Source: a phage. Taken from it: a stretch of DNA of 48,243 nt. Within the stretch, counting starts at the first letter, position 1; each line of letters begins with the position of its first letter. The notes beneath the pieces are model-generated. The model worked only from the letters and a program-made list of their open reading frames with translations, had not been told where the DNA came from and did not search any database. This document shows, piece by piece, positions 1 to 48,114 of this stretch. The translations under genes were made by a program, and so were the position numbers. The stretch is taken from the sequence record PZ150741.1. One strand, written 5' to 3'.

Positions 1-35
1 GGAGATGCAACAATACAAACACCAATAAAATTTAC

Positions 36-64
36 TTGCACACTAAGATAGAATATGCTACTAT
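36..64 (+). promoter_or_regulatory. sigma70-like promoter (TTGCAC-17 bp-TACTAT)
   Basis: -35 TTGCAC at 36-41, 17-bp spacer, -10 TACTAT at 59-64; followed by conserved leader AACGAGAGGAGAGG and ATG at 95. Confidence 0.6.
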
Positions 65-94
65 TCATTTACACAAACGAGAGGAGAGGCAGAT

Positions 95-244
95 ATGGTT
101 ACTTTGATGGTTATGGAGTTCGAAAACAGCACCGCAACTTACCGCGAGATGACTATGGCGCAGGCGTATCACCTGGCCTCAAACGGCAACTTCTACAAGG
201 CCCAAATCATCAACGAGTTCGGGGTAATTGACTATGAATTTTAA
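95..244 (+). CDS. hypothetical small protein (49 aa)
   Basis: ATG at 95 preceded by GAGGAGAGG Shine-Dalgarno; stop overlaps next start (ATGA); below the 60-aa ORF-track cutoff. Confidence 0.45.
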   Translation: MVTLMVMEFENSTATYREMTMAQAYHLASNGNFYKAQIINEFGVIDYEF

Positions 245-506
245 CAGTTACACCGTTACCGTTGATTTTGAGGGGCTGGAGCTGCCCCTCCCTAACAACT
301 ACCGGTATATCTCACGCGACTGTAACGGGTTTATTCAGGGGTGGCGGAACAAACCGACAGATACTGAGTTCGGGATGTCTGGCGGGGAAGAGTTGCCGAT
401 CACTTTCGGACATCAGAGTAGCAACGAAGAACTTAAAACCGTGATTCGTAAGTATCGCCGCCGCGGTAACACCGGACTTATAGCAATAACAGGCGCGGTT
501 GAATAA
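234..506 (+). CDS. hypothetical protein (90 aa)
   Basis: Track ORF 228-506; first ATG at 234 with GGGG upstream. Confidence 0.5.
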   Translation: MNFNSYTVTVDFEGLELPLPNNYRYISRDCNGFIQGWRNKPTDTEFGMSGGEELPITFGHQSSNEELKTVIRKYRRRGNTGLIAITGAVE

Positions 507-525
507 ACGAGAGGAGAGACAGAAG

Positions 526-744
526 ATGTTCCTGGAATGCAAATCCTATGAAGGCTATTGGGCGCTGACCAAAAACGACCTGTACCACCTCAAAGAAGAC
601 GGCGACGAGAGCCGCTGCTACATAATAGACGACAATGGCACTGAACTTGATGTCTATTACACCGGGTATGGTCGATGGGCGTTATTGGCGGACGATGACT
701 TTGTGTTCGAAGAATATAACGGAGAGGAGCCAGAAGATGAGTAA
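526..744 (+). CDS. hypothetical protein (72 aa)
   Basis: Track ORF 499-744; ATG at 526 preceded by AACGAGAGGAGAGACAGAAG leader/SD. Confidence 0.5.
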   Translation: MFLECKSYEGYWALTKNDLYHLKEDGDESRCYIIDDNGTELDVYYTGYGRWALLADDDFVFEEYNGEEPEDE

Positions 745-1339
745 CAAAAACGAAGTATTAGAATACCTGATTGACCAGCTACGGCAGCAGCTACCGGTAG
801 TAGATGTAATGGGTGAAATAAAACGGTGGAGCATAGACCGTAGTATTGCTGGCCGAGGTAACTATACCGAAGAGGAAAACGCCGTAATCGATGCTTACAT
901 CGGCCTGGAGCACAACCCATACAAGCAACAGTGCGAAGACCTGGCACATGAGGTGCAGTCACTCAAGAATCAGTTACGCGACGCTTCGGCGCTGGTGGCT
1001 GAGTTACAGAGCGACAACATTAAGAAATCTGAGCACATATCGCACCTGTCGGAACTGGTGGACGAGTTGATGGGGACTATAACGTTAATGAACGGGGACG
1101 TTGAGGCTTACAAAGTTCTACGCAAAGGTGGGTACGTGCCTGAGCAATCCGGTTGCCGTAAGGACGATACCCAGGAATGCGAGCATGAGTGGCGATGTGT
1201 GGTAGTTTTTGGGAATAGACTTGGGACCCCGTATTGCCGTAAATGTGGTGCGGCTAAACCTGAAGAATGCAAGCACGAATGGCAATTTTACGGAGTCGGG
1301 TTTCCTTGTATGTGCCTTAAATGCGGGTTAAAGAAATGA
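738..1339 (+). CDS. hypothetical protein, coiled-coil N-terminus and tandem Cys-rich zinc-ribbon-like C-terminus
   Basis: Track ORF 635-1339; ATG at 738 after GGAGAGGAG SD; C-terminus has two repeats of ECxHEW...CxKCG. Confidence 0.5.
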
Positions 1340-1539
1340 CCAGCATCCTTTTTATCTGGGTACTGTCTGCAGGTCAGATGCATCTGGCGGCATCAGAAAC
1401 GTTTTACTCGATGGAGGCGTGCCGGTCAGCGGCACGCGCCGCAGAGAACGCACACTTCCTGTTTCAGGGCGACAAGCCCAACGATTCAGAGGTACGCGCT
1501 ATCTGCTCACCTAAGCGACTTGGTAAACAGGAGAAGTGA
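1336..1539 (+). CDS. hypothetical small protein with hydrophobic signal-peptide-like N-terminus
   Basis: Track ORF 1321-1539; ATG at 1336 overlaps upstream stop (ATGA); N-terminus MTSILFIWVLSAGQMHLAAS. Confidence 0.4.
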   Translation: MTSILFIWVLSAGQMHLAASETFYSMEACRSAARAAENAHFLFQGDKPNDSEVRAICSPKRLGKQEK

Positions 1540-1541
1540 TT

Positions 1542-1790
1542 ATGGTTAAATTATACGCAGAGCGCGATTTAGAAATGCTCGACATGACTAACAATTACTA
1601 TTCAAGACATGTGATGGCTATGACGGAGGAAGGATTGAACAGTAAATCATCTATCGCTGCTGAGTTGGCGTACCGTGACTGGATTATTGATGAACAGCAA
1701 AAAGAGTTACAGAAATACAAAGACCAGTTCCCGGATTACGTCGAGTGCGCGAACTGTGGGTTGGTCACACATGTGGAAGGGGTAGAGTGA
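1542..1790 (+). CDS. hypothetical protein (82 aa)
   Basis: Track ORF 1536-1790; ATG at 1542 after AGGAGAAG. Confidence 0.45.
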   Translation: MVKLYAERDLEMLDMTNNYYSRHVMAMTEEGLNSKSSIAAELAYRDWIIDEQQKELQKYKDQFPDYVECANCGLVTHVEGVE

Positions 1791-1792
1791 TT

Positions 1793-2011
1793 ATGATATT
1801 CAGAGACCGTAGCAGCTTAAGAACACCGGATTGTCCTACGTTCGAGTTCGAAGACAAAGACGGAGATGTATGCTGTATTCAATTTTATAGAGACGATGAA
1901 GGTGAGTGCGGGCTTGTAGAGTTGCAGGTTTACAGTGAAACCGGTTGTGTTGTATTAAGTGCAGATGATGCGGAATCACTAGCTCGTAAGATACTTGAGG
2001 GCGTTAAATGA
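1793..2011 (+). CDS. hypothetical protein (72 aa)
   Basis: Track ORF 1745-2011; ATG at 1793 after GAAGGGG, follows upstream stop. Confidence 0.45.
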   Translation: MIFRDRSSLRTPDCPTFEFEDKDGDVCCIQFYRDDEGECGLVELQVYSETGCVVLSADDAESLARKILEGVK

Positions 2012-2301
2012 GCCTCGCAACTGACATCCTGAAACGAAGCGGCCTTGCGCCGCTGTCACCGAGAGCGAACACCCAAATATACAAGCGCCGCCGTAATGCG
2101 CTGTACCCCGAGATTCAGGCCAGACGCAAAGCTATCCGCGCCTGTGGATTCCAGAACGGGAAGGCCGTGAATCTCGGTGAGTTTAAAACACAGGAACGCG
2201 CAGCAATCGCTAACCGGTTATTTAATTACTGGAAATCGCTGGGGTACGATGATATTCCGACGAAACCACAGAGACGACAATACATCTGGAGACACAAATA
2301 A
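2008..2301 (+). CDS. hypothetical basic protein (97 aa)
   Basis: Track ORF; start overlaps upstream stop; Arg/Lys-rich. Confidence 0.45.
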   Translation: MSLATDILKRSGLAPLSPRANTQIYKRRRNALYPEIQARRKAIRACGFQNGKAVNLGEFKTQERAAIANRLFNYWKSLGYDDIPTKPQRRQYIWRHK

Positions 2302-2376
2302 ACAACTATTAGGATAATTCCTACCCGTGGTATCCTCCAGTTACTGCATACTTAATACGCACCTGGAGGATTCATC

Positions 2377-2685
2377 TTGGATAAATTTACTGAAACAGTG
2401 ACAGGCTGGCTTCTAGCTGCCGCGCTCGCCGGAGGGGTAATCGGACTACGACAACATAAGTCCGTTATTTCTGGCCCCACCGACGGCTTCTGCTTTATTG
2501 CTACTGGCTTCACTTGCGCCGTATTTGGTGCACCTCTTGCCGCTCAATGGTTCGGAATCACGGGCGACCGTGAAATCGCCGGGTTGGGCTTCATTATCGC
2601 TGTTCTCTGGATGCCTATCTATTCCCGTCTATCCAGTATCGTAGCCGGGGAATACATCGCACGTCGAGGAGGCACAGATGAATGA
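2377..2685 (+). CDS. holin-like membrane protein (about 3 TM segments)
   Basis: TTG start after GGAGGA; three hydrophobic segments; directly upstream of second membrane protein and endolysin. Confidence 0.45.
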   Translation: MDKFTETVTGWLLAAALAGGVIGLRQHKSVISGPTDGFCFIATGFTCAVFGAPLAAQWFGITGDREIAGLGFIIAVLWMPIYSRLSSIVAGEYIARRGGTDE

Positions 2686-2950
2686 GTTATTCTGGTTCGG
2701 CGGTATGCTGGCAATCGGGGGCACATCGCTGTTTAATGTGTACCACCCCAGCGTGGACGATGGGTTATTTGGTAGGGTGCTCTATATCCTGACAGCTATC
2801 GTCTGCGCCGCCGGATGTATCCACTTGCTACAGGGCAGCATGTCCCCGACGCTGCCTGAGACGTTAATCACATTAGTTGCGCTGCGCCAGATTCGCCAGG
2901 CGTGGTTGTCATACGGAGGACATAAGCGTGTCTCGAAATATTTCAGATAA
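2678..2950 (+). CDS. holin/antiholin-like membrane protein (2 TM segments)
   Basis: Two hydrophobic helices; overlaps both neighbours in the lysis cassette. Confidence 0.45.
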   Translation: MNELFWFGGMLAIGGTSLFNVYHPSVDDGLFGRVLYILTAIVCAAGCIHLLQGSMSPTLPETLITLVALRQIRQAWLSYGGHKRVSKYFR

Positions 2951-3416
2951 TGGGTTGCATTTTACCGCTGCGTTCGAGGGATTCCGCGGAACTGCGTATC
3001 GTGCTACGCCGAACGAGAAGTACCTGACTATAGGCTATGGAAGCTACGGTCCGCATGTTAAGGCGGGGCAAACCATCACGCCTGGTCAGGGCTTACTATT
3101 ACTTAATCGCGATATGGCTAAAGCCGTAGTTGCGGTTGATGCGGCGGCGCACCACTCATTGACACAGGCGCAGTTCGATGCAGTGTGCGACCTGGTGTAT
3201 AACGCGGGTGCCGGAGTGATTGCGGCTACTACTGGCACAGGTAAGGCACTGCGTTCTGGCGATATTGCGACACTGCGGGCTAAGCTGGCGCTGTTCATCA
3301 ACCAGAACGGCAAACCGTTACTTGGCTTACGTCGTCGCGTAGCTGGTCGCCTGGCGCTGTTCGACGGTAAACCGTGGCAGGAGGCGGAGGCTATTGGACG
3401 TGCGGTGAAAGGTTGA
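2928..3416 (+). CDS. endolysin, GH24 lysozyme (T4/P22 lysozyme-like)
   Basis: GTG at 2928 after GGAGGA; motifs ISDNG, FEGF...YLTIGYG, QFDAVCDLVYNAG, RRRVAGRLALF resemble P22 gp19/T4 e lysozymes. Confidence 0.85.
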   Translation: MSRNISDNGLHFTAAFEGFRGTAYRATPNEKYLTIGYGSYGPHVKAGQTITPGQGLLLLNRDMAKAVVAVDAAAHHSLTQAQFDAVCDLVYNAGAGVIAATTGTGKALRSGDIATLRAKLALFINQNGKPLLGLRRRVAGRLALFDGKPWQEAEAIGRAVKG

Positions 3417-3480
3417 CACATAAGACTAATCCGACGATACTTAAATCACCTCCTGCTCCATCCCTCTGCTCTCCAGTTTT

Positions 3481-3512
3481 ATCCCGGCCCTGACCCAGCC
3501 GGGATTTTTTTT
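3481..3512 (+). terminator. rho-independent terminator after lysis cassette
   Basis: Hairpin ATCCCGGC-CCTGACCCA-GCCGGGAT followed by T8 run. Confidence 0.8.
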
Positions 3513-3534
3513 ATCTATTTTCTGTAATGAATAG

Positions 3535-3563
3535 TTGACTATTACTCTGACCCCAATTATATT
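3535..3563 (+). promoter_or_regulatory. sigma70-like promoter (TTGACT-17 bp-TATATT)
   Basis: Immediately downstream of terminator; followed by AACGAGAACGGAG leader and ATG at 3598. Confidence 0.55.
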
Positions 3564-3597
3564 TACTTCATCGACAACGAGAACGGAGTAGAGAGAA

Positions 3598-3846
3598 ATG
3601 GGCAACGTATCGACGATAGAAATAACCGAAGAACTCGAAGATAAATGCATCGCATGGACTATGGATAATGACCCGGTTGCTATGTGTAAATTTCCAATGA
3701 AAATCACAGATACCGAAGCATTCAAAGACGCACAACTGATGGCACGCATCGCCGTTAGTAACCTGAGCAATAGCATTCCAGCGGACGCGTTCTGGTTCGC
3801 CGCAATGCAGACACTGAAAGCAGCTTATGCAGGAGAGAAGAAATGA
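3598..3846 (+). CDS. hypothetical protein (82 aa)
   Basis: Track ORF; strong SD GGAGTAGAGAGAA. Confidence 0.5.
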   Translation: MGNVSTIEITEELEDKCIAWTMDNDPVAMCKFPMKITDTEAFKDAQLMARIAVSNLSNSIPADAFWFAAMQTLKAAYAGEKK

Positions 3847-4046
3847 ACAACGTCACCGTTGGCGGCATTTATAAGAGTCGTCACTCTTGGAATGAGGGTG
3901 CAAGATTCATTGTAACCGCGGTTGGGTTGGACCACGTGCTTATCGCGGACCACCCATTGATAAAATTCAATGAATCCTATTTGGAATATTGTGTTGGTAG
4001 AAAGGAGTTCGAGACTAAATTTAAGTTTGCAGGAGAGAAGAAATGA
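3843..4046 (+). CDS. hypothetical protein (67 aa)
   Basis: Track ORF; ATGA overlap; SD AGGAGAGAAG. Confidence 0.5.
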   Translation: MNNVTVGGIYKSRHSWNEGARFIVTAVGLDHVLIADHPLIKFNESYLEYCVGRKEFETKFKFAGEKK

Positions 4047-4201
4047 GTGAACAAGGTCAAGTAAGCCAGCCACTACGAGTAGGCCGTAAAGTCAGTCGCA
4101 CCCCGTTCCCGACACGCGAGGAACTGATGAAACGTAACAGTTTCCCGGGGCCGGACAAGAACAAGTATCTCAATCGTATGTGGGGAGAGCGTAAAGAATG
4201 A
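4043..4201 (+). CDS. hypothetical small protein (52 aa)
   Basis: ATG at 4043 after AGGAGAGAAG; ATGA overlap with next gene; below track cutoff. Confidence 0.4.
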   Translation: MSEQGQVSQPLRVGRKVSRTPFPTREELMKRNSFPGPDKNKYLNRMWGERKE

Positions 4202-4368
4202 AAAAGTTAATTGCAGATGTTGAACTCGGTGATGTTATTCGTATTGATGACGACTACGGCGGCTACGACGTAGTGGTGAAGCACATCGAGTGGGATTCTA
4301 CGTTGCCATTTGTCACGATTAACCGTGAAATAATGTTCACTAAAACTGATTGGGTAGAGGTTCGATAA
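4198..4368 (+). CDS. hypothetical small protein (56 aa)
   Basis: ATG at 4198 after GGGGAGAG; below track cutoff. Confidence 0.4.
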   Translation: MKKLIADVELGDVIRIDDDYGGYDVVVKHIEWDSTLPFVTINREIMFTKTDWVEVR

Positions 4369-4541
4369 TGACTAACAACGAATACGAGAAACTTAGCGTA
4401 GAAGCGGCGACCGGTGAATCTGAAATAGCGTGGATTGACGCCAACATCGAGCACTACCTACGGCAAGTAGACATCCTTATGGAACGCCGCCGTGAACTGA
4501 TTAACCGCTTCAACCTGAACAAAGGTGACGCCAATGCCTAA
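4368..4541 (+). CDS. hypothetical protein (57 aa)
   Basis: Track ORF 4350-4541; ATG at 4368 overlaps upstream TAA. Confidence 0.45.
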   Translation: MTNNEYEKLSVEAATGESEIAWIDANIEHYLRQVDILMERRRELINRFNLNKGDANA

Positions 4542-4719
4542 AATCACAATTGCATCACTAGAGCGCCGTATTCTGGTGCTCGAGTCAGAGAAACAGACGT
4601 TAGGCGGTCAACTGTCGATTAACGGCGAGTTTCAACTGGAGGCGTTTAAGATGCTACTTGAACGCATGAAGGACGAGGAAGATTGGGCGCATTCCTTGCA
4701 AGACCTCTGGCAATACTAA
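4534..4719 (+). CDS. hypothetical coiled-coil protein (61 aa)
   Basis: Track ORF 4525-4719; ATG at 4534 after AAAGGTGA. Confidence 0.45.
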   Translation: MPKITIASLERRILVLESEKQTLGGQLSINGEFQLEAFKMLLERMKDEEDWAHSLQDLWQY

Positions 4720-4721
4720 AC

Positions 4722-4904
4722 ATGAAATCGCCTGAGCCAGTAGTTATCGATGGCGTCCTGTGGAAACCTTACTCGGTTAACCACATCGACGCCGACGGGA
4801 AGAAGTTCAGCTTCTACATTTTTGCAATTAGCCGTGAGCACGCCGCTTGTGTGGTCGATGATATACGAGAAACGGCGTGGCTCGGTGATGAGATAGTGGG
4901 GTGA
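4722..4904 (+). CDS. hypothetical protein (60 aa)
   Basis: Track ORF 4683-4904; ATG at 4722 just after upstream stop; TTG at 4683 is an alternative start. Confidence 0.4.
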   Translation: MKSPEPVVIDGVLWKPYSVNHIDADGKKFSFYIFAISREHAACVVDDIRETAWLGDEIVG

Positions 4905-4908
4905 GAGT

Positions 4909-4992
4909 ATGAATCTCGAGGTGGTTATCGGTCTGGTAGGTCTTAGCTACTTCATCGGGTTGTTGGTTGGCTTTCTGTGGGGTAGATACTAA
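4909..4992 (+). CDS. possible 27-aa single-TM peptide
   Basis: ATG at 4909, hydrophobic MNLEVVIGLVGLSYFIGLLVGFLWGRY, stop overlaps next start. Confidence 0.25.
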   Translation: MNLEVVIGLVGLSYFIGLLVGFLWGRY

Positions 4993-5273
4993 TGGCGCGT
5001 ACTGTTTCCGCGAGATTCACTGATATCGAATCCGCTATAGAAGAAGCCGTTTATTGTAGATTTTGCAACCCCTCCGCAGTACATAACTACGGAGTTATTG
5101 TTAAATACGGCAAGTTTGAGGTTAGAAGGGTGCGCGCCGACCGTCCGTACGAGTTTTTATGGACAACAGAAAGCCTCATCCCGCGGTGCCACATTTACAC
5201 AAGCGGTGCACATACGATTTTTGTAGACCTTAACAAGAAAGATATTACCGTCACTAAAGGAGAGACAAATTGA
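4992..5273 (+). CDS. hypothetical protein (93 aa)
   Basis: Track ORF; SD GGGGTAG upstream. Confidence 0.45.
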   Translation: MARTVSARFTDIESAIEEAVYCRFCNPSAVHNYGVIVKYGKFEVRRVRADRPYEFLWTTESLIPRCHIYTSGAHTIFVDLNKKDITVTKGETN

Positions 5274-9021: not shown

Positions 9022-9044
9022 AGCCCCGAAAGGGGCTTTCTTAT
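9022..9044 (+). terminator. hairpin AGCCCC-GAAA-GGGGCT plus T-rich tail
   Basis: Perfect 6-bp GC stem with GAAA tetraloop after portal stop. Confidence 0.5.
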
Positions 9045-9047
9045 AGT

Positions 9048-10124
9048 ATGCTATTAACTTTAGCGCCACAGGGTTTATCTATGAGCTTACTTACATCCCT
9101 AATCAGCCACCAGATTTGGCTGCAACGCACCGCATCAGGCGAGGTGAAAGACCTCGCACCGTTCATTCAGGAAATGCGAGACGAAATCAAACGGCAGGTG
9201 CTGTTGTTCGGTGACGACGGGCGAAGCACTGCGCGGCTGAATAAACTATTACGCGACCTGGAAGAAGCACTGACCGGACTTACAGGTGACTGGCAGACAA
9301 AGCTGATAGAAGACCTTAAGGAACTGGCGGCGTATGAAGCAGAGTGGAACGTAAAGACACTGGCAGCCAACGTAGATGCGGAATTTGTTACGCCTACCGC
9401 TGAACAGGTGTGGGCCGCTGCCGAGTTTCAGCCATTATCGTTAAGCGACAAGCCTGTTGACTTCACTAAGCTGATGTCGGGATGGGGTGAAACCGAAATA
9501 GCACGTCTTGTAACCGGCGTTAAGATGGGCTTTGTCCAAGGCCAGACTACACGGCAGATTGTTAAGAATGTTGTTGGCGCCGGCGGGCTGGCGGACATCA
9601 CTGAACGTAATGCAGCTACGGTAATCCGCACCGCGCTGTCTCACGTATCCAACGAAGCGCGTAACGAGACGTATAGGCAGAACGACGACATCATCGAGAA
9701 ATATGAATGGGTTTCGACGCTGGACAGCCGTACCAGTACGATTTGCAGGGCCAGAGATGGAATGACGTGGGAAATCGATAAAGGGCCGATACCCCCCGCC
9801 CATCCGAACTGTCGAAGTACCACTGCACCCGTAATAAGTTCTGAGTTCGACTTCCTCGATAAAGGGGCGAAACGCGCGGCTAAGGGCGCAGACGGCGGTA
9901 CTCAGGTAAGCGCAGATACCACTTATTACGAGTTCCTGAAACAGCAACCGGCGTGGTTTCAGGACCAGGCGCTCGGCCCTGTTCGCGGTAAGATTTTCCG
10001 TAACAGCGGTATATCGCCGGAAGAGTTTCGCGTAATATCTGTAGATGGTTTCGGGAATCCGCTCACGCTTAAGCAGATGGCGGAACTCGATAAACGTGTT
10101 GCTGATTATCTGAAAGGGGATTAA
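9048..10124 (+). CDS. head morphogenesis protein (Mu F / SPP1 gp7-like)
   Basis: Conserved C-terminal motif STICRARDG...PPAHPNCRST typical of the MuF family; position after portal. Confidence 0.8.
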   Translation: MLLTLAPQGLSMSLLTSLISHQIWLQRTASGEVKDLAPFIQEMRDEIKRQVLLFGDDGRSTARLNKLLRDLEEALTGLTGDWQTKLIEDLKELAAYEAEWNVKTLAANVDAEFVTPTAEQVWAAAEFQPLSLSDKPVDFTKLMSGWGETEIARLVTGVKMGFVQGQTTRQIVKNVVGAGGLADITERNAATVIRTALSHVSNEARNETYRQNDDIIEKYEWVSTLDSRTSTICRARDGMTWEIDKGPIPPAHPNCRSTTAPVISSEFDFLDKGAKRAAKGADGGTQVSADTTYYEFLKQQPAWFQDQALGPVRGKIFRNSGISPEEFRVISVDGFGNPLTLKQMAELDKRVADYLKGD

Positions 10125-10585
10125 TGATGGGCTTTTTCAAAGTAACTGATGTGCCGTCGCGTCGCGTAGTTCAGTACGCCCGAGTGTCTGGCTCCGGTGA
10201 GAACGTGGTGTTTATTGAAGATGAAAGCGTACTGGGTACACCTGTAGACGATATGCCGTTTGCAGATAAAACCGGTATTTCGCTGCCCGCGGCTGGTATG
10301 CTTTACGAGATTCCGTATCTGGCGGACGCTGGCGACGTGTATTTCTCTGCGCAACCGAAAGACACGGAACTGACGAACGGCAGCGCAACTATCACTGTCG
10401 AAGTTAAGGCAGGCAAAGCGCCATATGCGTTGACCTGGTACAAAGACGGTAAGGAAGTGGTAAACGCCCCGGAAGAGGCTTTGTCTCTGACGGTCAATTC
10501 GGCCGGTGAATACTTCGTTAAAGTCACAGATGCCGATGGAGTAGAGGCTGTGAGTAAAGCGGCGAAGGTTACTAAGCCAGAATGA
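10124..10585 (+). CDS. Ig-like domain protein (possible capsid decoration)
   Basis: C-terminal YALTWYKDGKEV...GEYFVKVTDADG pattern typical of I-set/Big-type Ig domains; ATGA overlap with MuF gene. Confidence 0.5.
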   Translation: MMGFFKVTDVPSRRVVQYARVSGSGENVVFIEDESVLGTPVDDMPFADKTGISLPAAGMLYEIPYLADAGDVYFSAQPKDTELTNGSATITVEVKAGKAPYALTWYKDGKEVVNAPEEALSLTVNSAGEYFVKVTDADGVEAVSKAAKVTKPE

Positions 10586-10586
10586 T

Positions 10587-10614
10587 AAAAGGCCCCTTTC
10601 GGGGCCTTAGTTTT
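10587..10614. terminator. bidirectional terminator AAGGCCCC-TTTC-GGGGCCTT
   Basis: 8-bp GC stem flanked by A-run and T-run; lies between convergent genes. Confidence 0.8.
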
Positions 10615-10837
10615 AAACTTCCACGTCTATCACCAAATCACCAGGCATGGTTATGACTATTTTATCGTTTTCATAGAACGGGCTAAGAGGCTCATTTTCA
10701 GACTGCAAACGTAAAGTTAGCTTTTTACCACCAAAATAATCTATGTAACGAACCCAGTACCACTCATCGAATACCTGTACCTTTTCTCCCGGGAGTACAT
10801 CTCTAGCTTTCTTTTGGTTCATAAATCTAATCGGCAT
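10613..10837 (-). CDS. hypothetical protein (74 aa), reverse-oriented accessory gene
   Basis: Track ORF with GGAGG SD; own promoter upstream and terminator downstream. Confidence 0.55.
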   Translation of the reverse strand: MPIRFMNQKKARDVLPGEKVQVFDEWYWVRYIDYFGGKKLTLRLQSENEPLSPFYENDKIVITMPGDLVIDVEV

Positions 10838-10863
10838 AAATACCTCCTGTTTAAGTTGGCTGA

Positions 10864-10892
10864 ATAGTACCCTATTATGTTGGGGTGCGCAA
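10864..10892 (-). promoter_or_regulatory. sigma70-like promoter (TTGCGC-17 bp-TACTAT) for 10613-10837
   Basis: Reverse complement reads TTGCGCACCCCAACATAATAGGGTACTAT; near-identical to promoters at 19711 and 42572. Confidence 0.65.
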
Positions 10893-10958
10893 ACTATTTA
10901 TTTACCCATTCCAGTTATTACACCAAAGTGTAAATGATGGAATAAACTATTCGAATAG

Positions 10959-10987
10959 TTGACTTTTCACTAAAAATGTGCTAAGCT
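10959..10987 (+). promoter_or_regulatory. possible promoter (TTGACT-17 bp-TAAGCT)
   Basis: Good -35, weaker -10; at the head of a 316-bp non-coding stretch. Confidence 0.3.
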
Positions 10988-11165
10988 CCACCTGAGCTTG
11001 TGAAGTATGAACAAGCGACCGCGGCGCGGGCAGGTAACGGAGCGGGACGTAAGTCCTGAGTGTAGTTACGCTGACGCGTTCGGAAGGGCCATACTCTATT
11101 GCTTGTGTGAAAAGTAACTGGTTTACTGAGATTACGCCGTTTCTATGTTTAAATGATAAGGGCTA

Positions 11166-11194
11166 GCGCCCCGCTTTATGGCGGGGCTTTACTT
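11166..11194 (+). terminator. terminator/attenuator-like hairpin GCCCCGC-TTTATG-GCGGGGC plus TTT
   Basis: 7-bp GC stem with short U tract about 20 nt upstream of spanin start. Confidence 0.45.
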
Positions 11195-11211
11195 ATCGAG
11201 AAAGGAGAAAC

Positions 11212-11601
11212 ATGGATCTTAAAGCAACTGTCGTAGCAGGAGCATGTTTCATCATCCTGGCTTACGCACACGGCATCTATCAATACCGAAGCGGCTGGAA
11301 CGAAGGCCGGGCGAATCTCGTTTCGCAGCAACAGCAGGAAGCACAAGCTGAGTTAGCGAAGAAAACACAACGGCAGCAGCAGGACGAATCAAAGGCCGCA
11401 GCCGCTGACAACGAAGGCAAGACGAAATCAGAGGTGATTACCCGTGAAGTCGTTAAGTACATTAAAACGCCTGGCCGCAGCGTGTGCACTTTCGATGATG
11501 CTCGTGTCCTGCTCAAGTCCCGCGCCGTCGCAAACGCCAATTCCATCCCCGGATATGACGATGATGCAGCCACCGTGCAAACTGGCGCCGCCAAGCAGTG
11601 A
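11212..11601 (+). CDS. i-spanin (Rz-like)
   Basis: N-terminal TM segment, Gln/Ala/Lys-rich coiled-coil region, and an embedded out-of-frame lipoprotein ORF. Confidence 0.6.
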   Translation: MDLKATVVAGACFIILAYAHGIYQYRSGWNEGRANLVSQQQQEAQAELAKKTQRQQQDESKAAAADNEGKTKSEVITREVVKYIKTPGRSVCTFDDARVLLKSRAVANANSIPGYDDDAATVQTGAAKQ

Positions 11602-11707
11602 TGCTGACGAGGATTTAGCTATCGATGTTCAGAATGCCGAATGTGCACGGCAACTGCGTCTGAAGGTGTTCATGTTGCAGGATTATGTGAGGAATATTCT
11701 GGAATAG
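11444..11707 (+). CDS. o-spanin (Rz1-like outer-membrane lipoprotein)
   Basis: GTG start after GAGGTGA; signal peptide ending in lipobox LVSC; Pro-rich mature region; overlaps i-spanin in a different frame. Confidence 0.6.
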   Translation: MKSLSTLKRLAAACALSMMLVSCSSPAPSQTPIPSPDMTMMQPPCKLAPPSSDADEDLAIDVQNAECARQLRLKVFMLQDYVRNILE

Positions 11708-11789
11708 TTGCCTTGCATGTTGGAATAATTTATTCTTGACATGTAAATCCGGGTGGCCCGGATTCCAACGTCCAGGGGACATACTGACT

Positions 11790-12491
11790 ATGAATCGTTT
11801 TTTACGTTATCCGTTCCAGGAAGAAGCTGGAGCAGAAGATAAAGCTGGCGGCGGTGACGCACCGAAAATGTTCACAGCCGAAGAAGTTCAGGCGCTGATT
11901 GAGAAAGAAGTTGCCGGGCTTAAGGCCAATCAGGAAGCTTTGCTGGCGGAGAAGAAAGAAGCCGCTCGTAGAGCAAAAGAGGCTGAAGAAGAACGGCAGC
12001 GCGCGCACCAGGAGGCGTTAAAAGCCGCTGGTAAGATGGACGAGTTCGAAAAGACGATTCGTAGCCAGTATGACCCGGTGTTAGCCGAGAAAGATGGTCG
12101 CATCTCCAGAATGGCAGAGCGCATCCTCGGCAGCGAACGTAAAGCGGTGTTAGGCTCTTTCGCAGGGGACTTTATTACCCCGGAAGCAGTAGACATTCTG
12201 GCTCCGTTCGTTAAGACTGAGTTCGAAGGCGATGATGTGGTTACTAAGTTTGTCGGCGCAGACGGTAACGTAATCACGACTGACCCGGAACAGTTCCGCA
12301 AATACCTGCGCGAACACAAAGCGTTTTCGCATTTGATTAAAGCAAATGCAGCTTCCGGCGGCGGGGCTTCCGGTAGCAAAGGCGGCGGGGCCGCACCAGC
12401 GTTTAAAGACATGAGTGAAGCGGAGCGTTTAGCTCTGTACAAATCGAACCCTGCCGAATTTGAACGGCAACTTAAAGCCCTGAGGAAATAA
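11790..12491 (+). CDS. capsid scaffolding protein
   Basis: Track ORF 11736-12491, likely start ATG 11790; highly charged coiled-coil sequence; immediately upstream of major capsid gene. Confidence 0.6.
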   Translation: MNRFLRYPFQEEAGAEDKAGGGDAPKMFTAEEVQALIEKEVAGLKANQEALLAEKKEAARRAKEAEEERQRAHQEALKAAGKMDEFEKTIRSQYDPVLAEKDGRISRMAERILGSERKAVLGSFAGDFITPEAVDILAPFVKTEFEGDDVVTKFVGADGNVITTDPEQFRKYLREHKAFSHLIKANAASGGGASGSKGGGAAPAFKDMSEAERLALYKSNPAEFERQLKALRK

Positions 12492-12493
12492 TA

Positions 12494-13543
12494 ATGGCAA
12501 TTACCACTATCGGCGATATCGTAACTGGCAACATTCCGGTTCTGGCGTCTTACATGACAGAAGACCCGGTAGAAAAAACCGCGTTCTTCCAGTCCGGTAT
12601 TCTGACCCCGACTCCGTACGCTGCTGAGATTGCCCGCGGCCCGTCCAACATCGCTAATATTCCTTTCTGGAAAGCGATTGACACTTCCATCGAGCCTAAC
12701 TACTCGAACGACGTATACCAGGACATCGCCACCCCGCGTAATGTCCAGACCGGCGAGATGATGGCCCGCGTTGCGTACCTGAACGAAGGTTTCGGCCAGG
12801 CGGATTTGACCGTTGAACTGACCAGCCAGAACCCGCTGCAATCCGTAGCGTCCCGTCTGGATAACTTCTGGCAGCGCCAGGCGCAACGCCGTCTGATTGC
12901 TACCGCGCTTGGCCTGTACAACGACAACGTGGCCGCTACCGACGCATACCACGAGCAGAACGACATGGTAATTGACGTGTCCGCTACTCTGGGCTTCGAC
13001 TCCGGCGCGTTCATCGATGCTACCCAGACTATGGGTGACGCTCTGATTGGCAACGGCGGCGAAGTGCTGGGTGCTATTGCTATGCACAGCTTTGTGTATG
13101 CGCAGGCACGTAAGCAGCAGCTTATTGACTTCATCCGTGACGCGGACAACAACACCATGTTCGCCACCTACCAGGGGTACCGCGTGATTGTTGACGACAG
13201 CATGACCGTAGTCGGTACTGGCCCGAGTCGTAAGTTCATTTCCATCATCTTCGGCAACGGCGCTATCGGTTATGGTGAAGGTAATCCGGTTAAACCGCTG
13301 CATTACGAGTACGAAGCGTCCCGCGGCAACGGCGGCGGCGTTGAAACCCTGTGGACCCGTAAGACCTGGCTGCTGCATCCGTTTGGCTACAGCTTCACCA
13401 GCGCAGTAATCACCGGTAACGGTACTGAGACTACCCCGCGCTCTGCTTCCTGGCAGGACCTGGCGAACGCCTCCAACTGGAACCGCGTTGTTGAGCGTAA
13501 GCATGTACCGATTGCCTTCCTGGTAACTGGTGTCGGTGCTTAA
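12494..13543 (+). CDS. major capsid protein
   Basis: 349-aa ORF immediately after scaffold gene, followed by strong terminator; size and position typical of HK97-fold capsid proteins. Confidence 0.75.
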   Translation: MAITTIGDIVTGNIPVLASYMTEDPVEKTAFFQSGILTPTPYAAEIARGPSNIANIPFWKAIDTSIEPNYSNDVYQDIATPRNVQTGEMMARVAYLNEGFGQADLTVELTSQNPLQSVASRLDNFWQRQAQRRLIATALGLYNDNVAATDAYHEQNDMVIDVSATLGFDSGAFIDATQTMGDALIGNGGEVLGAIAMHSFVYAQARKQQLIDFIRDADNNTMFATYQGYRVIVDDSMTVVGTGPSRKFISIIFGNGAIGYGEGNPVKPLHYEYEASRGNGGGVETLWTRKTWLLHPFGYSFTSAVITGNGTETTPRSASWQDLANASNWNRVVERKHVPIAFLVTGVGA

Positions 13544-43530: not shown

Positions 43531-43611
43531 TTTTTGTTCTATTTCACGAAACGCAACAATTGAAGCTACTATTGCAGGAGATGCAACAATACAAACACCA
43601 ATAAAATTTAC

Positions 43612-43640
43612 TTGCACACTAAGATAGAATATGCTACTAT
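43612..43640 (+). promoter_or_regulatory. sigma70-like promoter, copy of 36-64
   Basis: Duplicate within repeat. Confidence 0.6.
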
Positions 43641-43670
43641 TCATTTACACAAACGAGAGGAGAGGCAGAT

Positions 43671-43820
43671 ATGGTTACTTTGATGGTTATGGAGTTCGAA
43701 AACAGCACCGCAACTTACCGCGAGATGACTATGGCGCAGGCGTATCACCTGGCCTCAAACGGCAACTTCTACAAGGCCCAAATCATCAACGAGTTCGGGG
43801 TAATTGACTATGAATTTTAA
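43671..43820 (+). CDS. hypothetical small protein (copy of 95-244)
   Basis: Duplicate within repeat. Confidence 0.45.
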   Translation: MVTLMVMEFENSTATYREMTMAQAYHLASNGNFYKAQIINEFGVIDYEF

Positions 43821-44082
43821 CAGTTACACCGTTACCGTTGATTTTGAGGGGCTGGAGCTGCCCCTCCCTAACAACTACCGGTATATCTCACGCGACTGTA
43901 ACGGGTTTATTCAGGGGTGGCGGAACAAACCGACAGATACTGAGTTCGGGATGTCTGGCGGGGAAGAGTTGCCGATCACTTTCGGACATCAGAGTAGCAA
44001 CGAAGAACTTAAAACCGTGATTCGTAAGTATCGCCGCCGCGGTAACACCGGACTTATAGCAATAACAGGCGCGGTTGAATAA
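43810..44082 (+). CDS. hypothetical protein (copy of 234-506)
   Basis: Duplicate within repeat. Confidence 0.5.
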   Translation: MNFNSYTVTVDFEGLELPLPNNYRYISRDCNGFIQGWRNKPTDTEFGMSGGEELPITFGHQSSNEELKTVIRKYRRRGNTGLIAITGAVE

Positions 44083-44101
44083 ACGAGAGGAGAGACAGAA
44101 G

Positions 44102-44320
44102 ATGTTCCTGGAATGCAAATCCTATGAAGGCTATTGGGCGCTGACCAAAAACGACCTGTACCACCTCAAAGAAGACGGCGACGAGAGCCGCTGCTACATA
44201 ATAGACGACAATGGCACTGAACTTGATGTCTATTACACCGGGTATGGTCGATGGGCGTTATTGGCGGACGATGACTTTGTGTTCGAAGAATATAACGGAG
44301 AGGAGCCAGAAGATGAGTAA
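44102..44320 (+). CDS. hypothetical protein (copy of 526-744)
   Basis: Duplicate within repeat. Confidence 0.5.
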   Translation: MFLECKSYEGYWALTKNDLYHLKEDGDESRCYIIDDNGTELDVYYTGYGRWALLADDDFVFEEYNGEEPEDE

Positions 44321-44915
44321 CAAAAACGAAGTATTAGAATACCTGATTGACCAGCTACGGCAGCAGCTACCGGTAGTAGATGTAATGGGTGAAATAAAAC
44401 GGTGGAGCATAGACCGTAGTATTGCTGGCCGAGGTAACTATACCGAAGAGGAAAACGCCGTAATCGATGCTTACATCGGCCTGGAGCACAACCCATACAA
44501 GCAACAGTGCGAAGACCTGGCACATGAGGTGCAGTCACTCAAGAATCAGTTACGCGACGCTTCGGCGCTGGTGGCTGAGTTACAGAGCGACAACATTAAG
44601 AAATCTGAGCACATATCGCACCTGTCGGAACTGGTGGACGAGTTGATGGGGACTATAACGTTAATGAACGGGGACGTTGAGGCTTACAAAGTTCTACGCA
44701 AAGGTGGGTACGTGCCTGAGCAATCCGGTTGCCGTAAGGACGATACCCAGGAATGCGAGCATGAGTGGCGATGTGTGGTAGTTTTTGGGAATAGACTTGG
44801 GACCCCGTATTGCCGTAAATGTGGTGCGGCTAAACCTGAAGAATGCAAGCACGAATGGCAATTTTACGGAGTCGGGTTTCCTTGTATGTGCCTTAAATGC
44901 GGGTTAAAGAAATGA
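44314..44915 (+). CDS. zinc-ribbon-like protein (copy of 738-1339)
   Basis: Duplicate within repeat. Confidence 0.5.
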
Positions 44916-45115
44916 CCAGCATCCTTTTTATCTGGGTACTGTCTGCAGGTCAGATGCATCTGGCGGCATCAGAAACGTTTTACTCGATGGAGGCGTGCCG
45001 GTCAGCGGCACGCGCCGCAGAGAACGCACACTTCCTGTTTCAGGGCGACAAGCCCAACGATTCAGAGGTACGCGCTATCTGCTCACCTAAGCGACTTGGT
45101 AAACAGGAGAAGTGA
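44912..45115 (+). CDS. hypothetical small protein (copy of 1336-1539)
   Basis: Duplicate within repeat. Confidence 0.4.
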   Translation: MTSILFIWVLSAGQMHLAASETFYSMEACRSAARAAENAHFLFQGDKPNDSEVRAICSPKRLGKQEK

Positions 45116-45117
45116 TT

Positions 45118-45366
45118 ATGGTTAAATTATACGCAGAGCGCGATTTAGAAATGCTCGACATGACTAACAATTACTATTCAAGACATGTGATGGCTATGAC
45201 GGAGGAAGGATTGAACAGTAAATCATCTATCGCTGCTGAGTTGGCGTACCGTGACTGGATTATTGATGAACAGCAAAAAGAGTTACAGAAATACAAAGAC
45301 CAGTTCCCGGATTACGTCGAGTGCGCGAACTGTGGGTTGGTCACACATGTGGAAGGGGTAGAGTGA
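45118..45366 (+). CDS. hypothetical protein (copy of 1542-1790)
   Basis: Duplicate within repeat. Confidence 0.45.
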   Translation: MVKLYAERDLEMLDMTNNYYSRHVMAMTEEGLNSKSSIAAELAYRDWIIDEQQKELQKYKDQFPDYVECANCGLVTHVEGVE

Positions 45367-45368
45367 TT

Positions 45369-45587
45369 ATGATATTCAGAGACCGTAGCAGCTTAAGAAC
45401 ACCGGATTGTCCTACGTTCGAGTTCGAAGACAAAGACGGAGATGTATGCTGTATTCAATTTTATAGAGACGATGAAGGTGAGTGCGGGCTTGTAGAGTTG
45501 CAGGTTTACAGTGAAACCGGTTGTGTTGTATTAAGTGCAGATGATGCGGAATCACTAGCTCGTAAGATACTTGAGGGCGTTAAATGA
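45369..45587 (+). CDS. hypothetical protein (copy of 1793-2011)
   Basis: Duplicate within repeat. Confidence 0.45.
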   Translation: MIFRDRSSLRTPDCPTFEFEDKDGDVCCIQFYRDDEGECGLVELQVYSETGCVVLSADDAESLARKILEGVK

Positions 45588-45877
45588 GCCTCGCAACTGA
45601 CATCCTGAAACGAAGCGGCCTTGCGCCGCTGTCACCGAGAGCGAACACCCAAATATACAAGCGCCGCCGTAATGCGCTGTACCCCGAGATTCAGGCCAGA
45701 CGCAAAGCTATCCGCGCCTGTGGATTCCAGAACGGGAAGGCCGTGAATCTCGGTGAGTTTAAAACACAGGAACGCGCAGCAATCGCTAACCGGTTATTTA
45801 ATTACTGGAAATCGCTGGGGTACGATGATATTCCGACGAAACCACAGAGACGACAATACATCTGGAGACACAAATAA
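45584..45877 (+). CDS. hypothetical basic protein (copy of 2008-2301)
   Basis: Duplicate within repeat. Confidence 0.45.
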   Translation: MSLATDILKRSGLAPLSPRANTQIYKRRRNALYPEIQARRKAIRACGFQNGKAVNLGEFKTQERAAIANRLFNYWKSLGYDDIPTKPQRRQYIWRHK

Positions 45878-45952
45878 ACAACTATTAGGATAATTCCTAC
45901 CCGTGGTATCCTCCAGTTACTGCATACTTAATACGCACCTGGAGGATTCATC

Positions 45953-46261
45953 TTGGATAAATTTACTGAAACAGTGACAGGCTGGCTTCTAGCTGCCGCG
46001 CTCGCCGGAGGGGTAATCGGACTACGACAACATAAGTCCGTTATTTCTGGCCCCACCGACGGCTTCTGCTTTATTGCTACTGGCTTCACTTGCGCCGTAT
46101 TTGGTGCACCTCTTGCCGCTCAATGGTTCGGAATCACGGGCGACCGTGAAATCGCCGGGTTGGGCTTCATTATCGCTGTTCTCTGGATGCCTATCTATTC
46201 CCGTCTATCCAGTATCGTAGCCGGGGAATACATCGCACGTCGAGGAGGCACAGATGAATGA
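45953..46261 (+). CDS. holin-like membrane protein (copy of 2377-2685)
   Basis: Duplicate within repeat. Confidence 0.45.
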   Translation: MDKFTETVTGWLLAAALAGGVIGLRQHKSVISGPTDGFCFIATGFTCAVFGAPLAAQWFGITGDREIAGLGFIIAVLWMPIYSRLSSIVAGEYIARRGGTDE

Positions 46262-46526
46262 GTTATTCTGGTTCGGCGGTATGCTGGCAATCGGGGGCAC
46301 ATCGCTGTTTAATGTGTACCACCCCAGCGTGGACGATGGGTTATTTGGTAGGGTGCTCTATATCCTGACAGCTATCGTCTGCGCCGCCGGATGTATCCAC
46401 TTGCTACAGGGCAGCATGTCCCCGACGCTGCCTGAGACGTTAATCACATTAGTTGCGCTGCGCCAGATTCGCCAGGCGTGGTTGTCATACGGAGGACATA
46501 AGCGTGTCTCGAAATATTTCAGATAA
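46254..46526 (+). CDS. holin/antiholin-like membrane protein (copy of 2678-2950)
   Basis: Duplicate within repeat. Confidence 0.45.
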   Translation: MNELFWFGGMLAIGGTSLFNVYHPSVDDGLFGRVLYILTAIVCAAGCIHLLQGSMSPTLPETLITLVALRQIRQAWLSYGGHKRVSKYFR

Positions 46527-46990
46527 TGGGTTGCATTTTACCGCTGCGTTCGAGGGATTCCGGAACTGCGTATCGTGCTACGCCGAACGAGAAGTACCTG
46601 ACTATAGGCTATGGAAGCTACGGTCCGCATGTTAAGGCGGGGCAAACCATCACGCCTGGTCAGGGCTTACTATTACTTAATCGCGATATGGCTAAAGCCG
46701 TAGTTGCGGTTGATGCGGCGGCGCACCACTCATTGACACAGGCGCAGTTCGATGCAGTGTGCGACCTGGTGTATAACGCGGGTGCCGGAGTGATTGCGGC
46801 TACTACTGGCACAGGTAAGGCACTGCGTTCTGGCGATATTGCGACACTGCGGGCTAAGCTGGCGCTGTTCATCAACCAGAACGGCAAACCGTTACTTGGC
46901 TTACGTCGTCGCGTAGCTGGTCGCCTGGCGCTGTTCGACGGTAAACCGTGGCAGGAGGCGGAGGCTATTGGACGTGCGGTGAAAGGTTGA
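46504..46990 (+). pseudogene. endolysin copy disrupted by 2-bp deletion (frameshift)
   Basis: Relative to 2928-3416, CGCG becomes CG at 46561; reading frame breaks after FEGFR; track splits it into 46453-46635 and 46526-46990. Confidence 0.8.
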
Positions 46991-47054
46991 CACATAAGAC
47001 TAATCCGACGATACTTAAATCACCTCCTGCTCCATCCCTCTGCTCTCCAGTTTT

Positions 47055-47085
47055 ATCCCGGCCCTGACCCAGCCGGGATTTTTTT
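47055..47085 (+). terminator. terminator copy with T7 instead of T8
   Basis: Same hairpin as 3481-3512, one T shorter. Confidence 0.8.
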
Positions 47086-47107
47086 ATCTATTTTCTGTAA
47101 TGAATAG

Positions 47108-47136
47108 TTGACTATTACTCTGACCCCAATTATATT
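47108..47136 (+). promoter_or_regulatory. sigma70-like promoter, copy of 3535-3563
   Basis: Duplicate within repeat. Confidence 0.55.
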
Positions 47137-47170
47137 TACTTCATCGACAACGAGAACGGAGTAGAGAGAA

Positions 47171-47419
47171 ATGGGCAACGTATCGACGATAGAAATAACC
47201 GAAGAACTCGAAGATAAATGCATCGCATGGACTATGGATAATGACCCGGTTGCTATGTGTAAATTTCCAATGAAAATCACAGATACCGAAGCATTCAAAG
47301 ACGCACAACTGATGGCACGCATCGCCGTTAGTAACCTGAGCAATAGCATTCCAGCGGACGCGTTCTGGTTCGCCGCAATGCAGACACTGAAAGCAGCTTA
47401 TGCAGGAGAGAAGAAATGA
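47171..47419 (+). CDS. hypothetical protein (copy of 3598-3846)
   Basis: Duplicate within repeat. Confidence 0.5.
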   Translation: MGNVSTIEITEELEDKCIAWTMDNDPVAMCKFPMKITDTEAFKDAQLMARIAVSNLSNSIPADAFWFAAMQTLKAAYAGEKK

Positions 47420-47619
47420 ACAACGTCACCGTTGGCGGCATTTATAAGAGTCGTCACTCTTGGAATGAGGGTGCAAGATTCATTGTAACCGCGGTTGGGT
47501 TGGACCACGTGCTTATCGCGGACCACCCATTGATAAAATTCAATGAATCCTATTTGGAATATTGTGTTGGTAGAAAGGAGTTCGAGACTAAATTTAAGTT
47601 TGCAGGAGAGAAGAAATGA
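47416..47619 (+). CDS. hypothetical protein (copy of 3843-4046)
   Basis: Duplicate within repeat. Confidence 0.5.
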   Translation: MNNVTVGGIYKSRHSWNEGARFIVTAVGLDHVLIADHPLIKFNESYLEYCVGRKEFETKFKFAGEKK

Positions 47620-47774
47620 GTGAACAAGGTCAAGTAAGCCAGCCACTACGAGTAGGCCGTAAAGTCAGTCGCACCCCGTTCCCGACACGCGAGGAACTGA
47701 TGAAACGTAACAGTTTCCCGGGGCCGGACAAGAACAAGTATCTCAATCGTATGTGGGGAGAGCGTAAAGAATGA
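47616..47774 (+). CDS. hypothetical small protein (copy of 4043-4201)
   Basis: Duplicate within repeat. Confidence 0.4.
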   Translation: MSEQGQVSQPLRVGRKVSRTPFPTREELMKRNSFPGPDKNKYLNRMWGERKE

Positions 47775-47941
47775 AAAAGTTAATTGCAGATGTTGAACTC
47801 GGTGATGTTATTCGTATTGATGACGACTACGGCGGCTACGACGTAGTGGTGAAGCACATCGAGTGGGATTCTACGTTGCCATTTGTCACGATTAACCGTG
47901 AAATAATGTTCACTAAAACTGATTGGGTAGAGGTTCGATAA
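47771..47941 (+). CDS. hypothetical small protein (copy of 4198-4368)
   Basis: Duplicate within repeat. Confidence 0.4.
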   Translation: MKKLIADVELGDVIRIDDDYGGYDVVVKHIEWDSTLPFVTINREIMFTKTDWVEVR

Positions 47942-48114
47942 TGACTAACAACGAATACGAGAAACTTAGCGTAGAAGCGGCGACCGGTGAATCTGAAATA
48001 GCGTGGATTGACGCCAACATCGAGCACTACCTACGGCAAGTAGACATCCTTATGGAACGCCGCCGTGAACTGATTAACCGCTTCAACCTGAACAAAGGTG
48101 ACGCCAATGCCTAA
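47941..48114 (+). CDS. hypothetical protein (copy of 4368-4541)
   Basis: Duplicate within repeat. Confidence 0.45.
   Translation: MTNNEYEKLSVEAATGESEIAWIDANIEHYLRQVDILMERRRELINRFNLNKGDANA

Follow-up and report, generated by a model that had tools for sequence, protein, structure and literature searches.

An overlapped spanin gene pair of the Jersey families in the head-gene region of a Kagunavirus coliphage, apart from the holin and endolysin genes

Spanin genes usually, but not obligatorily, adjoin the genes for holin and endolysin, and phage T4 is an exception. A published census of spanins (Kongari et al. 2018, PMC6139136; BMC Bioinformatics 19:326) described the "Jersey" i-spanin and o-spanin families, with 27-28 members, which include those of phage Jersey and of the kagunaviruses K1G, K1H and K1ind1-3 and fall in the overlapped class with an overlap of 155 bp. 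According to this census (PMC6139136), the Jersey i-spanins consist of two helices and a linker with predicted beta strands, and Cys45 and Cys67 of the Jersey o-spanins are "constant". The pseT.3/pseT.2 genes of T4 were described there as a precedent for unlinked spanins. In the published description of the kagunavirus Golestan, the holins are ORF66 and ORF67 and the endolysin is ORF68, with the spanins at ORF7 and ORF8. Similarly, the description of SeF1 places the spanins at Gp_009 and Gp_010 and the holins and endolysin at Gp_063-065.

The DNA analyzed here, referred to as the window, is a stretch of 48,243 nucleotides in which a genome of 43,576 bp is followed by 4,667 bp that repeat its beginning (positions 1-4670 compared with 43577-48243, 99.94%). 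A megablast search with positions 10600-12500 matched 484 phage records, the best match being Escherichia phage vB_EcoS-Ro145c2YLVW, a member of Kagunavirus (Guernseyvirinae), which covered 100% of the query with 94.9% identity. By these nucleotide matches the window is a Kagunavirus genome. In order to obtain a comparative set, IMG/VR was scanned with the i-spanin, which yielded 47 full loci with i-spanin identities of 58-97%, or 48 sequences with the window included. The two genes at 11212-11601 and 11444-11707 are interpreted as a functional two-component spanin of this Kagunavirus (Guernseyvirinae) coliphage, with an estimated probability of about 93%.

The i-spanin gene (11212..11601, + strand) is an ATG-initiated open reading frame (ORF) of 129 aa, preceded by the Shine-Dalgarno sequence (SD) AAGGAG at 11202-11207. 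The hydrophobic maximum of the protein falls on residues 5-23 (ATVVAGACFIILAYAHGIY), the predicted transmembrane domain (TMD) encoded at 11224-11280, and an N-terminal hydrophobic stretch was present in all 48 i-spanins, with Kyte-Doolittle 18-residue maxima of 1.0-2.1. Residues 26-129 contain 16 Ala, 11 Gln and 9 Lys. The hydrophobic maximum and this composition agree with the N-terminal transmembrane helix and the Gln/Ala/Lys richness claimed for this protein in the original prediction. A single-sequence AF2 model of the monomer gave one helix from residue 3 to 84, with a pLDDT of about 80 at residues 1-60, low confidence past residue 60 and a C-terminal third without resolved structure. In the periplasmic domain, Cys92 is invariant (48/48). 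The i-spanin matched phrog_2536, "Rz-like spanin", over its full length (E=1.5e-54). Searches of both proteins against Pfam and NCBIfam returned nothing above cutoff; the best Pfam match was DUF2514 (E=0.027, 15 bits vs a cutoff of 26), and the Rz (PF03245) and Rz1 (PF06085) models were unmatched. Since the spanin models of these databases were unmatched, sequence homology to lambda Rz/Rz1 is undetectable.

The o-spanin gene (11444..11707, + strand) lies in the +1 frame, starts with GTG and encodes 87 aa; its SD, GAGGTGA at 11431-11437, stands 6 nt ahead of the GTG. The two genes overlap by 158 nt, and the o-spanin gene runs 106 nt past the i-spanin stop. Both ORFs are thus located where they had been predicted, with the second SD as stated there. 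In the signal peptide (11444-11512; MKSLSTLKRLAAACALSMMLVSC, then SSPAP), an n-region with positive charge precedes a hydrophobic core, the lipobox LVSC, Cys23 (codon 11510-11512) and Ser at +2, and the sequence passes the PROSITE-PS51257-style rule that was used for lipobox scoring. The mature protein has 65 aa with 9 Pro, a Pro-rich N-terminal part and further Cys at 45 and 67, and ends in a conserved segment encoded beyond the i-spanin stop. The lipoprotein signal, the lipobox and the Pro-rich domain noted earlier were therefore recovered. The sequence AAAC at residue 14 was considered as an alternative lipidation site (Cys14) and rejected, because its h-region has just 4 residues and the motif is missing in Jerseyvirus-type sequences. 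The 87-aa protein contains no hydrophobic C-terminal segment, and is hence unlike a unimolecular spanin of the T1 gp11 type. Among the PHROG profiles, phrog_1267 matched over residues 8-86 (E=2.5e-19) and phrog_5672 over residues 41-87 only (E=1e-29).

With the 87-aa o-spanin as query, tblastn matched 667 phage records, including K1ind1 (88.5%), K1G (85.1%) and wksl3 (69.3%), as well as members of the Dhillonvirus group (e.g. StarDew and the HK578 group) at 35-40% identity. The RefSeq record of K1G carries the same gene models, at 4663-5049 and 4895-5158, the latter marked "overlapping gene" and both named "Rz-like spanin", between the genes for Hoc-like head decoration and head scaffolding. 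Compared with the Jersey families, the pair has the same +1-frame architecture with a nearly equal overlap (158 bp here, 155 bp there), Cys45 and Cys67 of the o-spanin occupy identical positions, and the i-spanin likewise combines helices with a non-helical linker. The i-spanin has 129 aa rather than 128 and the lipobox LVSC is rare; otherwise there is no difference of substance. Since PHROG, the Kongari census, tblastn and RefSeq K1G agree, membership of the pair in the Jersey families of i-spanins and o-spanins is established. The original prediction of an overlapped i-spanin/o-spanin pair is upheld by these family assignments and annotations together with the conservation described below. 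The family, the overlapped architecture and the position of the pair are already known from the census and RefSeq, so for the spanins themselves little changes.

A lipobox alone carries little weight in this genome. When the rule was applied to all starts on both genome strands, three further ORFs passed with similar hydrophobicity, each lying across a large structural gene on the opposite strand or in another frame, and for this reason the lipobox by itself is not significant. The same genome-wide ORF scan gave no other credible lipoprotein, spanin or u-spanin candidate. Those three ORFs could suggest that the +1-frame ORF is likewise a chance open frame from which no lipoprotein is made, and the full-length ORF is indeed unannotated in many GenBank records. 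The comparative data argue strongly against such a reading. By the original prediction the embedded ORF should be conserved in related phages, and in all 47 IMG/VR loci the +1 frame was found open across the 3' part of the i-spanin gene and past its stop. In each of these loci a lipobox of the form [LMI][SANVT][AGS]C is kept, the +2 residue is one of S, Q, N, R and A but in no case Asp, and the mature o-spanin has 64-66 aa with exactly three Cys. The periplasmic Cys pair was present in 48/48 sequences, and the variant LVSC in 1/48. The frame and lipobox persist across all 48 sequences although the signal peptides of the Kagunavirus type (..ALSTMLASC) are wholly different from those of the Jerseyvirus type (..SVSFLLNGC). 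Furthermore, the o-spanin SD is conserved among relatives, and the overlap measures 155 bp in 40 of 47 relatives.

Nucleotide diversity by codon position pointed in the same direction. In the periplasmic region encoded by the i-spanin frame only, i-frame position 3 was the most diverse (0.247 vs 0.090 and 0.059). Diversity shifted with the frame, and past the i-spanin stop it was highest at o-frame position 3 (0.277 vs 0.099 and 0.042), so that third-position-type diversity tracks the o-frame there. In the overlap encoding the mature o-spanin, the pattern was flattened (0.169, 0.096 and 0.162), as expected for two constrained frames. This distribution of diversity indicates that purifying selection is acting on both frames. 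In one locus (L038) the gene for the same o-spanin is almost separate, overlapping by 14 nt, mirroring the arrangement of FSL_SP-031, which the literature lists as a "separated" spanin variant. A chance origin of the +1 frame is thus effectively refuted by the comparative data, and is given a negligible probability. The full-length GTG-start o-spanin, as put forward in the original prediction, is the correct gene model. In many GenBank and Pharokka records, and in PHROG 5672, the protein is cut to an ATG-initiated ORF of 47-48 aa without the signal peptide, and in at least one database record the labels of i-spanin and o-spanin are swapped.

The proposed mode of action follows the established work on lambda Rz/Rz1. 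By analogy, the N-terminal helix of the i-spanin would anchor in the inner membrane, and the remainder, forming a mostly helical dimer held together by disulfides, would extend into the periplasm. The o-spanin would be exported, lipidated at Cys23 and sorted to the outer membrane, the last because the residue at +2 is Ser and not Asp. The two proteins would then bind across the periplasm through the cell-wall meshwork, and once the peptidoglycan is destroyed by holin and endolysin, the complexes would be expected to collapse, fusing the inner and outer membranes and completing lysis. As in lambda, whose Rz/Rz1 is the prototype of two-component spanins, two frames of one DNA segment encode a type II protein of the inner membrane and a lipoprotein of the outer membrane, Pro abounds in the o-spanin, both proteins have periplasmic Cys, and membrane fusion is presumed to follow murein degradation. 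Unlike the lambda genes, the pair is overlapped rather than fully embedded, has no holin or endolysin gene adjacent and shows no detectable homology to Rz/Rz1. The mature o-spanin, at 65 aa, is also longer than mature lambda Rz1, which has about 40 aa, and carries the conserved C-terminal segment. A relatively long o-spanin is shared with T4 pseT.3/pseT.2; in T4, however, the spanin genes are "separated", the holin and endolysin genes are mutually unlinked too, and the protein families are unrelated.

The remainder of the lysis set lies elsewhere in the window. Two holin genes (2377-2685, + strand, phrog_2359, and 2678-2950, + strand, phrog_2508) are followed by a lysozyme-type endolysin gene (2877-3416, + strand; endolysin PHROGs, PF00959 E=3.3e-25), and the i-spanin start is 7796 bp past the endolysin stop at 3416. 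Upstream of the spanins are the genes for Mu-F-like head morphogenesis (9048-10124) and Hoc-like decoration (10124-10585) and a reverse-strand ORF of 74 aa (10613-10837), which occupies a variable moron slot and is absent from 47/47 IMG/VR relatives. Downstream are the scaffold (11790-12491) and major capsid protein (12494-13543) genes. All 47 of the 47 IMG/VR loci share the gene order Hoc-like, spanins, scaffold, capsid, and none of them showed a holin or endolysin gene within 2.5 kb of the spanins. A separation of about 8 kb from the holins and endolysin, between head-morphogenesis and scaffold genes, had been described for the window from its sequence, and the same placement is evident across the relatives.

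This location, next to a variable moron slot and unlinked from holin and endolysin, would be in keeping with a reading of the TMD protein and lipoprotein as a moron-type envelope module, which might exclude superinfection or mask a receptor, for example, in the manner of T5 Llp or phi80/N15 Cor. The lack of a match to the Pfam spanin families would fit as well, as would the outcome of a literature search, in which no experimental report on the Jersey spanin family was found. Opposed to it is the Klebsiella phage Kp4887-1 (OK490472), whose spanins are of the same PHROG/Jersey families, as are those of Dhillonvirus. In Kp4887-1 the genes for a holin (phrog_20), an endolysin (phrog_7), the i-spanin (phrog_2536, E=9e-45) and the o-spanin (phrog_5672) are contiguous in a canonical cassette, and the spanin family is therefore tied to lysis by neighbourhood. 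In addition, an overlapped pair of TMD protein and lipoprotein with conserved periplasmic Cys is a spanin signature (Kongari et al. 2018, PMC6139136), the genome holds no rival spanin candidate, and the pair is universal in the clade, whereas morons are patchy. An envelope module is accordingly considered very improbable, and a two-component spanin remains the preferred interpretation, on the grounds of sequence signals, membership in the family and the gene neighbourhood seen in a relative.

In Dhillonvirus the spanin pair also lies between head-morphogenesis and scaffold genes (StarDew), but the structured leader that precedes the pair in the window (see below) is absent. The contrast with the cassette of Kp4887-1 shows that position in the head module is a trait of the lineage and not a property of the spanin proteins. 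Because they lie outside the cassette, the spanins can be overlooked when the "lysis system" of Jersey-like phages is studied, as in the S10 study.

Three terminator-like hairpins intervene between the endolysin and spanin genes: one 3' of the endolysin gene (3483-3503, + strand) with a T8 run at 3505-3512, one at 9022-9037 (+ strand), and a bidirectional one at 10589-10608. Further interruptions on the + strand are a promoter-like site at 3535-3563 and the GC hairpin at 11168-11187, both described below. Because of the three hairpins and the reverse-strand gene, it is plausible that the spanins are transcribed apart from the holin-endolysin cassette, as the original prediction had inferred. 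The pair lies behind a promoter-like site and a leader, between the Hoc-like and scaffold genes, and joint expression with the capsid genes, not with the endolysin, is therefore judged most likely from this arrangement. In a Kagunavirus RNA-seq study (PMC12645636), a coarse "middle" class took in the lysozyme, Mu-F-like and capsid genes alike, with the spanins unmentioned.

The promoter-like site (10945..10987, + strand) is located 5' of the spanins and is made up of a palindrome, a -35 element, a 17-nt spacer with a TGn extension and a -10 element. The perfect 16-bp palindrome AACTATTCGAATAGTT (10945-10960) abuts the -35 element TTGACT (10959-10964), and TGn at 10979-10981 is followed by TAAGCT at 10982-10987. 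The site is conserved over Kagunavirus-type and Jerseyvirus-type loci. A simple sigma-70 scanner made no call at 10959-10987, since the -10 element has only 3/6 matches and the site relies on its TGn extension. The spanin pair had been proposed to possess a candidate promoter and an attenuator of its own; for the promoter, the evidence extends as far as this conserved, extended -10 promoter-like site.

Between the promoter-like site and the i-spanin SD is a conserved non-coding leader of about 200 nt (10994..11197, + strand), the only part of the locus that may be undescribed. It contains a long hairpin of 65 nt (11019-11083, + strand) that covaries, followed by the motif GGAAGGGCC (11082-11090, + strand), which is invariant, phiEap-2 included. 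A second, GC-rich hairpin (11168-11187, + strand) with the tail TTTACTTATC lies at the leader end, before the i-spanin SD. The inner helices of the leader were misaligned by MAFFT between the Kagunavirus and Jerseyvirus types and were realigned by a covariance model. In the realigned set, compensatory changes were observed in 12/23 pairs of the long hairpin, with 97% of cells paired and observed values that were reached by 0/500 shuffles, in an alignment that was fitted to the model and so leans towards structure. In slid controls, pairing fell to 23-41%. Searches with the covariance model returned one copy in the window and one per Kagunavirus, Jerseyvirus and phiEap-2 locus searched, and none in the Dhillonvirus, Otaku, TS6 and Kp4887-1 loci. 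A looser hairpin pattern scan of IMG/VR gave mostly chance matches; the model confirmed 10 of 80 fetched loci, all of them known contigs of the Guernseyvirinae set. Rfam, searched with positions 10500-11900 at E<=1, contained no match to the leader, and its sole return, Histone3 at the bidirectional terminator (10586-10630), was spurious. The 36-aa ORF at 11007-11117, which Bas70 lists as a "hypothetical protein", was judged to be non-coding, since Jersey-type loci lack its start region and 1-nt indels inside it shift the frame.

The GC hairpin is conserved among relatives, with compensatory changes from CG to GC or UA. In the window, hairpin and tail together satisfy an intrinsic-terminator rule, and for this phage the attenuator reading is possible on that basis. 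A U-rich tail was found solely in the Kagunavirus type (TTTACTTA); the Jerseyvirus type has TTAGCGTA, with 3 T in 8. Given this restriction, attenuation is not the conserved feature, and of the attenuator originally proposed, the conserved and covarying hairpin stands while the U-tract is missing in Jerseyvirus-type relatives. The hairpin could instead form the 3' end of a small RNA of about 200 nt, or be a stabilizing or processing stem in a 5' UTR, with the spanins as the first genes of the capsid operon. Covariation of the stem without a shared U-tract is compatible with either role, as is Otaku, where the leader is shorter and no terminator-like stem precedes the ATG. The gap between hairpin and SD, furthermore, is too small for another promoter. 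The fit of hairpin and tail to the terminator rule in the window weighs on the side of an attenuator, as does, by analogy only, the layout of lambda pR'-6S-tR', where a promoter, a leader and a hairpin stand directly before the late genes. A role other than attenuation is considered a realistic prospect, at somewhat less than even chance.

The leader as a whole could be an undescribed Guernseyvirinae cis-regulatory RNA, for instance a regulated attenuator or an antitermination element of the put-like kind, or else a small RNA in its own right, although this is judged rather unlikely. If true, the element would time or dose expression of the spanins, and possibly of the capsid operon, independently of holin and endolysin, and a regulatory leader would offer a handle on late-gene control in a virulent siphovirus without a Q-like antiterminator. 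The structured leader ahead of the spanins deserves attention at the transcript level.

The GAATAGTTGaCT box of the promoter-like site upstream of the spanins recurs at 3529 and 11702. At the former position it precedes a strong promoter-like site (3535-3563, + strand; TTGACT-17-TATATT). A second promoter-like site, a sequence match only and preceded by the box at 11702, is found at the end of the o-spanin gene, 5' of the scaffold gene (11708..11736, + strand), and reads TTGCCT-17-TATTCT after GAATAG.

The i-spanin gene (11212-11601) is preceded by a conserved, non-coding leader of about 200 nt on the plus strand (10994-11197), flanked by a promoter-like site upstream and the i-spanin Shine-Dalgarno sequence downstream. 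The leader contains a long hairpin (11019-11083), a GGAAGGGCC motif (11082-11090) and a GC hairpin (11168-11187), all on the plus strand. Compensatory changes were observed in the long hairpin across Kagunavirus, Jerseyvirus, and phiEap-2. The leader occurs once per genome, and 10994-11197 had no match in Rfam.

Three plus-strand promoter-like sites in the window have in common the box GAATAGTTG(A/C)CT, in which GAATAG is joined directly to the -35 hexamer. The box was found after the endolysin terminator (3529-3540), ahead of the spanin leader (10945-10964), where it forms part of a 16-bp palindrome, AACTATTCGAATAGTT, and ahead of the scaffold gene (11702-11713). It may be a regulator site common to the three, or may define a class of promoter. 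Furthermore, a promoter/operator-like motif of about 30 nt, GAATAGTAnCCTATTAT(g/a)TT, which contains the inverted repeat AATAG..CTATT and often has GGGGTGCGCAA after it, recurs in the window (10862-10892 and 19709-19739, with further copies on the minus strand at 36537, 39128, 39172, 42563, and 42596). Copies are placed where divergent or early-looking gene blocks begin.

The interval separating the Hoc-like gene from the spanin leader carries, on the minus strand, a 74-aa ORF (10613-10837; phrog_8705, unknown function) bordered by a bidirectional hairpin (10589-10608). This ORF was found in the two closest GenBank relatives and was missing from all 47 related IMG/VR spanin loci, a distribution that makes 10613-10837 a variable moron slot.

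Spanin annotation in GenBank relatives was truncated or swapped (L001, 11295-11441; L002, 5839-5982; L053, 957-1452; L-numbers denote relatives' loci). MH051334 and Bas70 list the o-spanin as a 47-48-aa fragment with an ATG start and without a signal peptide, and PHROG 5672 is based upon this truncated form. In MW790495 the two labels are swapped: the 387-nt gene carries the name 'o-spanin', and 'i-spanin' is given to a 126-nt fragment. Within the same spanin family, the Kagunavirus-like contig IMGVR_UViG_3300045988_013393 (L038; spanin region 2501-3100) encodes a 118-aa i-spanin and an o-spanin with an unrelated signal peptide, MTMNKLFLSAVIIGITGC, the two genes overlapping by only 14 nt. This pair is a natural 'separated' variant, similar in arrangement to that of FSL_SP-031.

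In the lysis cassette, the longest endolysin ORF (2877-3416) begins with a TTG and overlaps the second holin gene (2678-2950) by 74 nt. The Bas70 endolysin is annotated as a shorter protein (162 aa), and the TTG at 2877 is a candidate start. Lastly, positions 43577-48243, at the end of the window, duplicate 1-4670 (4.67 kb, 99.94% identity, lengths differing by 3 nt), which leaves 43,576 bp of unique genome. The duplication arises either because a circularly permuted assembly wraps around on itself or because the genome has a terminal repeat.
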